NCBI GenBank assembly: GCA_001785985.1
Contig: MFVE01000005.1
Location: 112,533 to 176,532 of the forward strand
Source: Candidatus Nomurabacteria bacterium RIFCSPLOWO2_01_FULL_42_17
GTDB taxonomy: Bacteria > Patescibacteriota > Minisyncoccia > Phycocordibacterales > UBA9973
DNA length: 64,000 nt
Direction: 5' to 3'
Shown here piece after piece: positions 45,552-46,394 of this stretch (position 1 is its first letter; every line of letters begins with the position of its first letter). A model generated the notes under the pieces. It was given only the letters and a program-made list of their open reading frames with translations, had not been told where the DNA came from and made no database searches. The position numbers were made by a program, and so were the translations under genes.

Positions 45552-46263
45552 TCAACCTTTTAAGACTTTAATGAGTTTATTGGCATTCCCATGCTTTAGC
45601 ATTCCTAAATAAGATTGCACCGTCTCCTGTTTTAAATTATCTTTCAGATTTCTAAGCATCTTTCTTTTCGTCGCTGTCCGTAAAACTCTATGCTTTGGAA
45701 AATGCACCCAGCCGAGAAAATCCACACCGGAAGCGATGGTTTTCATGAAAACTTTGCCTAGGTGCAGTGAGAGCTTTAGACTCTCACTGAGAAAGTGAGA
45801 AATTTTTGGAAGCAAATCTTCAAGATAATTTCTACTGTCGTTCAATATAACAAAATCATCTGCATAGCGGATATAGTATTTCACTTTCAATTCCCTTTTC
45901 ATAAACTGATCAAATTCATTCATATAGACATTTACCAAAAGCTGAGAAGTTAGATTCCCGAGTGGTAAGCCTTTATCCATCTCAGCTATAGCGTAGATTG
46001 GATTTACATAGGAATTTCCTATGAGGTTGGAAGAAAAGCTATCTATCACTTGTGAAAGTAGCCAAAGCGTATCCGTGTCAAAGGCCGCCTTTGACAGTAT
46101 GTGTTTCAAGATTTCATGATCAATGCTCGCAAAGAATTTCCGAATGTCGCATTTTAAAACCCAGCACGTTTTTGTATTATTTTTTGAAACTTTGCGAGAA
46201 AAATCACGAAAACTATTTATAGCCTGCGGAGAAGGGCCTATTAATTCATAAGCCTCTTTCTGC
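45552..46263 (-). pseudogene. N-terminally truncated reverse transcriptase with DGR-type motif 4. It has motifs 2a through 7 only, and no in-frame ATG upstream of a TTG at 46109.
   Basis: Stop-to-stop translation gives ..SFRDFSRKV..CWVLKCDIRKFFASIDHEIL (motif A), GLPLGNLTSQLLVNVYMNEFD (motif 4 with LG...SQ instead of QG...SP), YIRYADDFVIL (motif C) and VDFLGW (motif 7). An in-frame TAG lies at 46263, and there is no room for the fingers motifs before the ruvA start. Confidence 0.6.
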
Positions 46264-46394
46264 TATGGCGAAACTCGCCCCGCTAAAACGGGGTAAACAA
46301 GCATTTTTAAAGAACATTATACACCCGTATTATATACCTTTTTAGGTAAAAAGTCAAGAGGGTTAAAGGAGAATTTAATTGGTAAGATTAGTAA

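Follow-up and report, generated by a model that had tools for sequence, protein, structure and literature searches.

Here we have analysed a stretch of 64,000 nucleotides from the genome of Candidatus Nomurabacteria bacterium RIFCSPLOWO2_01_FULL_42_17 (contig MFVE01000005.1), hereafter called the window, and in it a reverse transcriptase (RT) reading frame that lies between rpsT and ruvA. Our results show an RT of the family that belongs to diversity-generating retroelements (DGRs), in a gene order shared with intact relatives, without its N-terminal part and the rest of its cassette, and with a junction that recurs base for base in other assemblies. The locus is very probably a pseudogene, namely the 3' two-thirds of the RT gene of a DGR of the Patescibacteria type, left behind by a deletion of about 2 kb. 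In an intact DGR, the RT and its partner protein Avd copy the RNA of a template repeat (TR) into cDNA, misreading adenines, and the cDNA overwrites a variable repeat (VR) in the target gene; replacement of the VR diversifies a ligand-binding surface of the target protein. We propose, from three related loci described below (L001, L014 and L017), that the ancestral cassette measured about 2.9 kb, lay between ruvA and the rpsT promoter, and would have consisted of a strong promoter, a structured leader hairpin, a target gene of about 250 codons with a C-terminal VR, a TR, a bAvd gene on the opposite strand, and an RT of about 340 amino acids (aa). A single deletion of about 2 kb, running from the 3' arm of the leader hairpin to about codon 123 of the RT, would then have taken the target gene, the VR, the TR, avd and the fingers of the RT (motifs 0, 1, 2 and 2a). 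Since no start codon precedes the catalytic aspartate of motif A, and neither a template nor a target is left, we infer that the locus has lost its function and cannot diversify anything. An earlier reading of the letters of this stretch (the original prediction) had wavered between a decayed DGR and a split or trans-acting one; the intact cassette at the same site in a relative, the promoter and leader that have been retained, and the reproducible junction all speak for the former.

The frame runs from stop to stop on the minus strand (46262 to 45552) and comprises 236 codons, bounded by a TAG (46265-46263) ahead of it and a TGA (45554-45552) at its end, with neither a frameshift nor an internal stop. 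Its translation matches Pfam RVT_1 with E = 2.4e-19 and 70 bits (cut-off 29.6 bits), the match being limited to profile positions 56-203 of 205, and a search of 5.8 billion proteins returned more than 8000 homologues, the best with E = 2.5e-105; by these measures the similarity to RTs is far beyond chance. Homology to RTs starts at 46223 ('AINSFRDF'), which corresponds in the alignment of homologues to about codon 123 of a protein of about 340 aa, and the first 13 codons of the frame (46224-46262) are leader sequence that is open by chance, and not RT. In tblastn, a full-length homologue (P0007) aligned with its residues 123-350 to 46226-45558 at 75% identity, and an RT family profile matched the remnant over positions 116-331 of 334. 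The original prediction had described a 5'-truncated RT frame between rpsT and ruvA, with motifs A, 4/B, C (YADD) and 7 (DFLGW) and without the fingers motifs 1 and 2, and both the translation and the homologue alignment bear this out: motif 3/A reads VLKCDIRKFF, with its catalytic aspartate at 46146-46148, motif 6, motif 7 (GVDFLGW) and the thumb are also present, and the N-terminal 115-120 residues or so are gone, with motif 0, motif 1 (PKPRxIH), motif 2 (RDRLLHH) and nearly all of motif 2a. That motif 2a was present, as had also been claimed, does not agree with the alignment, in which just the tail of this motif (DSYSCRxxKGTHKA in the homologues) is left. The claim that the frame has no ATG holds upstream of motif 4 and fails beyond it. 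The earliest in-frame ATG, GTG or TTG is the TTG at 46109 and the earliest ATG is codon 95 (MDKGL...), both downstream of the motif A aspartate, and in front of motif A the locus offers neither a start codon nor anything like a Shine-Dalgarno sequence. A complete and translatable RT would possess motifs 1, 2 and 2a and a start codon, and the remnant does not. The RT stop lies 31 nucleotides (nt) from rpsT; on the other side, the in-frame TAG at 46263 and the ruvA start 130 nt further on are where they had been placed.

The relatives of the remnant tell what kind of RT it was. Thousands of RTs in Nomurabacteria, Paceibacterota and further Patescibacteria share 60-76% identity with the remnant; the best homologues are 66-76% identical and nearly all about 330-350 aa long, and almost all of the best 120 have a length of about 300-375 aa. 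We collected RT loci, 80 from species-representative genomes together with contigs fetched for individual proteins, and scanned each of them for repeat pairs with mismatches at the adenines of one copy. At strict settings an adenine-biased TR/VR pair was found in 58 of 84 loci, most of the negative ones having no upstream DNA. Of the non-redundant loci, 64 have 1300 nt or more of sequence ahead of the RT start; in 62 of these a TR lies no further than 800 nt upstream of the RT, with a VR beyond it, and when TR/VR mismatches were pooled, 1047 of 1117 (93.7%) fell at TR adenines. An Avd homologue, antisense to the RT gene and abutting or overlapping its start, is present in almost every locus with upstream DNA, and the Avd of the relative L001 matches Pfam bAvd (PF22296) at 52.3 bits (cut-off 40) as well as NCBIfam DivGenRetAVD (NF033474). 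Among known structures the best match in the PDB is 8ub7, which scores 126.9 bits with a full-length homologue, against about 50 for group II and retron-type RTs, and 73.3 against 55.3 bits with the remnant itself; the matched segment of 8ub7 is 100% identical to brt of Bordetella phage BPP-1 (tblastn against phage genomes). As described in PMC3521204, a motif 4 of the form (I/V/L)GxxxSQ is for the most part both necessary and sufficient for an RT to be linked to a DGR, and the LGNLTSQ of the remnant has this form. The original prediction had taken the same motif as the mark of a DGR RT, which fits the intact relatives with adenine-biased TR/VR pairs and bAvd and the Brt protein as best structure. 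We regard the RT as one of DGR type on these sequence comparisons, because the genomic context of the family (TR/VR and Avd) settles a picture in which all NCBIfam scores, given below, stay under their thresholds. The DGR RTs that come from the CPR (candidate phyla radiation) cluster together (PMC11661182), and those of CPR/Patescibacteria have been described as a clade of their own made of cellular elements, 'DGR clade 2' (Roux et al. 2021, PMC8144416), with targets that have no recognisable domains (PMC8144416). From its taxonomy, the remnant presumably belongs to this clade 2.

What did the locus look like before the deletion? The answer comes from L001 (contig CALQYS010000004.1), where the gene order is uvrC-spoU-fpg-ruvA, then target(VR)-TR-avd-RT, then rpsT-grx-CSD-ABCF. 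The flanks are those of the window, with uvrC, spoU, fpg and ruvA on one side and rpsT and the genes for a small thioredoxin-like protein, a cold-shock protein and an ABC-F ATPase on the other, and the flanking proteins are 63-94% identical between the two, with the exception of fpg (35%). In L014 and L017 the DGR likewise adjoins ruvA and/or rpsT, and an intact cassette is thus found at the orthologous position in three relatives. Two further loci, L022 (767-841) and L027 (886-960), show the empty site, with a ruvA-rpsT spacer of 73 nt; their DGR sits further along this block of genes, about 2 kb past the ABC-F gene. Among related Nomurabacteria-like genomes the ruvA-rpsT site is therefore seen occupied, empty and reduced to a remnant. 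The RT most similar to the remnant in the 5.8-billion-protein search (P0001, 76% identical) belongs to a DGR at a different site, next to murB, that of P0015 also lies elsewhere, and very similar RTs adjoin murB (L091) or recG (L093). On these comparisons the position of the DGR cassette changes between close relatives. The L001 target, the one target that we scanned, has no Pfam domain.

The junction can be read from both of its sides (Table 1). On the left, the promoter of the lost target gene now stands fused to the remnant of the RT, no terminator separates the two, and a covariance model of the leader hairpin (R1) matches the window at 46215-46275 with 28.4 bits. The two adjacent GC hairpins that had been noted upstream of the frame (GGCGA-aac-TCGCC and CCCCG-ctaaaa-CGGGG, 46267-46293) are indeed there, and they turn out to be the start of the DGR target leader. 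The stretch around the second of them (about 46276-46299) aligns against a gap in all other loci of the leader alignment and appears to be lineage-specific. After the 3' arm of the leader hairpin, the window runs directly into GCTATAAATAGT..., which aligns to about codon 123 of the RT of L001 and L014; the nucleotide alignment to these two loci begins at 46223, and the leader alignment ends in the 3' arm of the hairpin. In L001, the segment that the window lacks measures about 2.05 kb (from about 8322 to 10369) and holds the target, VR, TR, avd and codons 1-122 of the RT. The two sides of the junction may share a microhomology (GCTAT, 5 nt at most), judging from the sequence of L001, a relative that is only 75% identical. 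On the right, the 37 nt upstream of rpsT are conserved at occupied, remnant and empty sites (TTGxxT-17-TAnATT-6-ATG), and the RT stop codon overlaps the -35 of this promoter-like stretch, which marks the right-hand edge of the cassette. The stretch is followed by 6 nt to the ATG, without a Shine-Dalgarno sequence, and resembles a promoter that would give an S20 mRNA with no leader or almost none. Because these 37 nt are conserved in all three states of the site, rpsT has a promoter-like signal of its own, and we have rejected the idea that the remnant is kept for rpsT to be read through from the DGR promoter.

Age and state of the remnant were addressed with a conservation test, for which 115 full-length homologues served as the reference. 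At the 73 columns with a conservation of 97% or more the remnant shows no deviation, and among the 110 columns with 90% or more it shows 4, where the intact proteins deviate at 2.55 on average and 26 of the 115 at four or more; the homologues were chosen for similarity to the window, which biases the column test towards agreement. Because there is neither a frameshift nor a stop, and no excess of change at conserved positions, the simplest reading is that the deletion was recent on the scale of the divergence between the homologues. The column test does not separate 'recent' from 'selected', and synonymous sites are saturated at about 75% amino-acid identity. Several points weigh against the pseudogene. 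An open frame of 236 codons without degenerative substitutions is also what purifying selection would leave if some function had remained. The strong promoter is still upstream, so the remnant is probably transcribed. Several related metagenome-assembled genomes (MAGs) carry two RT loci, the comparison made here covers 64 kb of the genome, and an intact second DGR may exist elsewhere in it. Finally, no relative with an intact cassette closer than about 75% RT identity was found, and for this reason the exact endpoints of the deletion, and its being a single event, rest on a fairly distant comparison.

Could the remnant instead have been kept for a new role, either as a palm/thumb protein of 142 aa starting at the ATG of codon 95 or as a transcribed RNA? 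Besides the open frame and the 73 highly conserved columns without deviation, this reading can call on the promoter fused upstream, which matches the consensus at 11 of 12 positions with no terminator behind it, and on gene callers, which predict products of 142 or 123 aa on sister contigs. We consider it very unlikely nonetheless. The family has no conserved short form, almost all of the best 120 homologues being of the full length given above, and the lone homologue of 236 aa (P0082, in locus L003) comes from a differently deleted locus. Neither a Shine-Dalgarno-like sequence nor a start is found ahead of motif A, recency by itself explains why decay is missing, and the four assemblies that carry the locus are identical, hence there is no population signal of selection. 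A wider proposition, to which we allow a small chance, is that either the remnant is not inert (a stable RNA or a selected 142-aa palm/thumb fragment) or the leader hairpin is an undescribed cis-acting RNA of Patescibacteria DGRs. If so, a selected remnant would account for the full absence of degenerative changes, and the leader hairpin could control the expression of target or TR or recruit RT-Avd.

A split or trans-acting DGR, for which the N-terminal part of the RT, the TR/VR pair and the Avd would be encoded elsewhere (the Avd, for example, by the gene at 1311-1679), was the other possibility that the original prediction offered, and we judge it highly improbable. Components of DGRs can lie apart, with TR/VR possibly on the other strand (PMC3521204), a four-helix-bundle open reading frame (ORF) does exist at 1311-1679, and our searches cover the 64 kb of the window, where they consisted of family profiles run against 849 stop-to-stop ORFs, tblastn, a repeat search and a blastn self-comparison. 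No adenine-biased TR/VR pair was found in the window at strict or loose settings, the latter giving merely two chance matches of 30-37 nt. Likewise, tblastn found no match in the window to the avd or target of L001 and no RT N-terminus, a family-linked Avd profile of 70 sequences hit no window ORF better than E = 0.15, and the RT profile detected no second RT piece. No ORF lies between the promoter (46329-46357) and the RT remnant, and no target with a VR was found there. The window thus has neither a TR/VR pair nor an Avd gene adjacent to the RT, as had been said of the neighbourhood of the frame. The minus-strand ORF at 1311-1679 was rejected as the Avd of a DGR: it matches PF05635 (E = 3.3e-20) and TIGR02436 (84.6 bits), a different family, gives a BLASTP E of 0.5 with the L001 Avd, and is not among the matches of the Avd profile. 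It is a stand-alone gene for a four-helix-bundle '23S rRNA intervening sequence protein', 44 kb from the remnant and beside an ORF of 156 aa (1721-2191) that, read by eye, we take to be ribosomal protein S7 (rpsG). A split arrangement would also go against the habit of the family, as avd abuts the RT in every family locus with upstream DNA except the decayed pair L003/L004, and the TR is close to the RT in the 62 of 64 loci mentioned above. Moreover, the motif A aspartate has no start codon ahead of it, and the break in the RT coincides with the deletion junction inside the target leader.

It could be argued that the organism still has an intact cassette, which the metagenome assembly collapsed or mis-joined. 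DGR variable regions are heterogeneous in populations and can break assemblies, and the window itself appears to stem from a MAG of Patescibacteria, since its closest relatives are all MAGs or metagenome contigs. We give this artefact practically no credence. Exact look-ups of the RuvA and S20 proteins of the window led to contigs from four other samples or sources (ENA ERZ4903072, ENA ERZ28563625, JGI 3300025317 and Logan SRR3989342; 48.7, 15.4, 11.0 and 1.2 kb). The rpsT-ruvA interval of 874 nt is identical to that of the window in the three contigs that span it (ENA and JGI), the Logan contig (1168 nt) is 100% identical over window positions 46152-47319, junction included, and 6.7 kb around the interval are at least 99.9% identical between assemblies. 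A complete RT at this locus, which reassembly might have brought to light, did not appear, and the truncated junction was the same base for base in four independent assemblies. In addition, the two breakpoints share no long repeat, and TR and VR both lie inside the missing segment.

Lastly, a fragment of a group II intron maturase or of a retron RT is suggested by the top NCBIfam model (TIGR04416, group_II_RT_mat, followed by Drt3a, Drt2 and retron St85), by the general RT palm and thumb, and by homologues annotated as 'retron-type reverse transcriptase' or 'group II intron reverse transcriptase domain-containing protein', but there is hardly any probability left for it: the group II model reaches 98.5 bits, a third of its cut-off of 300, the further models also stay under their curated cut-offs (75 against 200; retron_St85_RT 59 against 235), motif 4 is LGxxxSQ and not QGxxxSP, the genomic context is another one, with TR/VR and Avd tied to the family in 62 of 64 loci, every group II and retron-type structure scores below BPP-1 Brt, and an Rfam scan of 44000-47500 at E <= 1 gave weak sub-threshold chance matches only, with no group II intron or retron RNA. 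A grouping with group II intron or retron RTs, which had been named as a possible outcome, is thus contradicted by structure scores and context alike. The Rfam scan of four related loci at the gathering threshold returned tRNAs only.

How does the locus compare with known systems? It resembles the DGR clade of Patescibacteria/CPR in RT identity, in the adenine mutagenesis of TR/VR and the Avd of its relatives, and in the L001 target without a Pfam domain, and it differs from that clade in that the window copy lacks the target, VR, TR, avd and RT codons 1-122. With the DGR of BPP-1 (Brt, bAvd, TR and the VR of mtd; 8ub7 series) it shares the SQ motif 4 and the best structure match, and its relatives share with it an Avd of the bAvd family and adenine-specific TR-to-VR mismatches. 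The BPP-1 element is phage-borne, and its avd, TR and brt are on one strand. In contrast, the CPR relatives carry avd antisense between TR and RT, overlapping the RT start, the catalytic motif is YADD here and YMDD in BPP-1, and the element in the window has been cut short and is inactive. DGR RTs published before as truncated or inactivated were attributed to transposon insertion, nonsense mutation or frameshift (Schillinger et al. 2012, PMC3521204), whereas the window shows an internal deletion of about 2 kb, and a locus of matching gene order allows the ancestral state to be reconstructed. In itself this is ordinary gene decay in a CPR genome, one more inactivated RT of a well-documented DGR clade; what is mildly novel is the reconstructable series of occupied, empty and remnant states at one site, together with the conserved leader hairpin. 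The locus provides a clean and datable case of DGR loss in a DGR-rich lineage. The site series sets the boundaries of the cassette, from the target promoter to the RT stop codon that overlaps the -35 of rpsT, and shows that DGR cassettes are gained, moved and lost on short timescales. It also calls for caution in annotation: an RT with the SQ motif in a Patescibacteria MAG does not prove an active DGR, and generic four-helix-bundle genes should not be paired with such RTs as Avd.

Table 1. Features of the rpsT-ruvA locus in the window and of the intact cassette in L001 (contig CALQYS010000004.1); positions are given for the sequence named in the second column.
Feature	Sequence	Position	Strand	Basis or remark
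rpsT (ribosomal protein S20)	window	45269-45520	minus	ORF; Pfam Ribosomal_S20p on identical protein
Promoter-like stretch before rpsT, TTGATT-17-TAGATT-6-ATG	window	45521-45555	minus	alignment of the three site states (occupied, empty, remnant)
RT remnant, homologous to codons ~123-350 of CPR DGR RTs	window	45552-46223	minus	tblastn, family profile, alignment, RVT_1
RT motif 5, YADD, catalytic	window	45855-45866	minus	translation; invariant columns Y133, A134, D135, D136
RT motif 4, LGNLTSQ (context LPLGNLTSQ)	window	45942-45962	minus	translation; invariant in RT alignment; aligns to IGSLTSQ of BPP-1 Brt
Proposed deletion junction, hairpin 3' arm (...CTCCGCAG) joined to RT codon ~123 (GCTATAAAT...)	window	46219-46228	minus	L001/L014 nucleotide alignment, leader alignment
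Leader-hairpin remnant: 5' arm TTTCGCCATAGCAGAAAGAGGC, loop, part of 3' arm (...GCCCTTCTCCGCAG)	window	46224-46275	minus	covariance model, alignments, fold
Small GC hairpin, CCCCG-N6-CGGGG	window	46278-46293	minus	sequence, leader alignment, fold
Sigma-70-type promoter of the lost target gene, TTGACT-17-TATAAT	window	46329-46357	minus	11/12 match; equivalent to L001 8215-8243; alignment
ruvA	window	46395-46970	plus	ORF; Pfam RuvA_N and RuvA_C on identical protein
Cassette interval, ruvA-rpsT	L001	8180-11087		
Consensus promoter, TTGACA-17-TATAAT	L001	8215-8243		12/12
Leader hairpin	L001	8269-8330		covariance-model search
Target gene, 253 aa	L001	8421-9182		
VR, last codons of target	L001	9027-9139		
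TR	L001	9517-9629		all 20 TR/VR mismatches at TR adenines
avd, 125 aa, antisense	L001	9646-10023	minus	
RT, 351 aa	L001	10001-11056		

The leader hairpin deserves a description of its own. It is about 60 nt or longer, has the consensus TTCGCCAYAGC...GCTRTGGCGAA, and lies on the target strand between a consensus promoter and the start codon of the target, about 600-700 nt upstream of the VR, in several lineages of Patescibacteria. We found it in at least 17 DGR loci (16 aligned, and L072), for instance in L062 (3979-4038), L010 (3990-4049) and L068 (3958-4015) besides L001, and the window holds a half-deleted fossil of it. In the alignment of 16 sequences, 12 of the 21 predicted pairs of the hairpin show compensatory double changes, and the matches of the hairpin model across 836 kb of loci are nearly all at the target-leader position. 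No Rfam family matched the hairpin, either in the window locus at E <= 1 or in the four related loci at the gathering threshold. To our knowledge, no DGR cis-element has been described at the target-leader position.

Other observations concern the architecture of related cassettes. Most loci share the layout of L001: avd is placed between TR and RT on the opposite strand, with an overlap of about 20 nt at the RT start. A transcript that continues from the TR into the RT gene would therefore be antisense to avd. Directly after the TR of L001 there is a GC hairpin followed by a T-run (9641-9662). A second and independent decayed DGR was found in L003 (9100-10711) and L004 (contig ena:ERZ27247591:k141_866559), where leader hairpin and target survive as far as the VR, the TR and avd are deleted, and the RT lacks residues 25-97 or so. 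This RT was called as the 236-aa protein P0082, the sole homologue of that length, and its deletion differs from that of the window.

Two further features of the window lie apart from the RT locus. Four copies of an AT-rich, promoter-like repeat of 50-91 nt (...TTGTAAT...AATATGTTATACT...) are present at 19328-19377, 22198-22296, 25401-25499 and 29009-29107; their spacing of about 2.9-3.6 kb suggests a tandem array of paralogous genes with duplicated upstream regions. Between the cold-shock and thioredoxin-like genes, an imperfect inverted repeat of 43 nt (44813-45003; 79% complementary, arms 105 nt apart) encloses a hairpin, GAGGCA...TGCCTC, at about 44884-44906.

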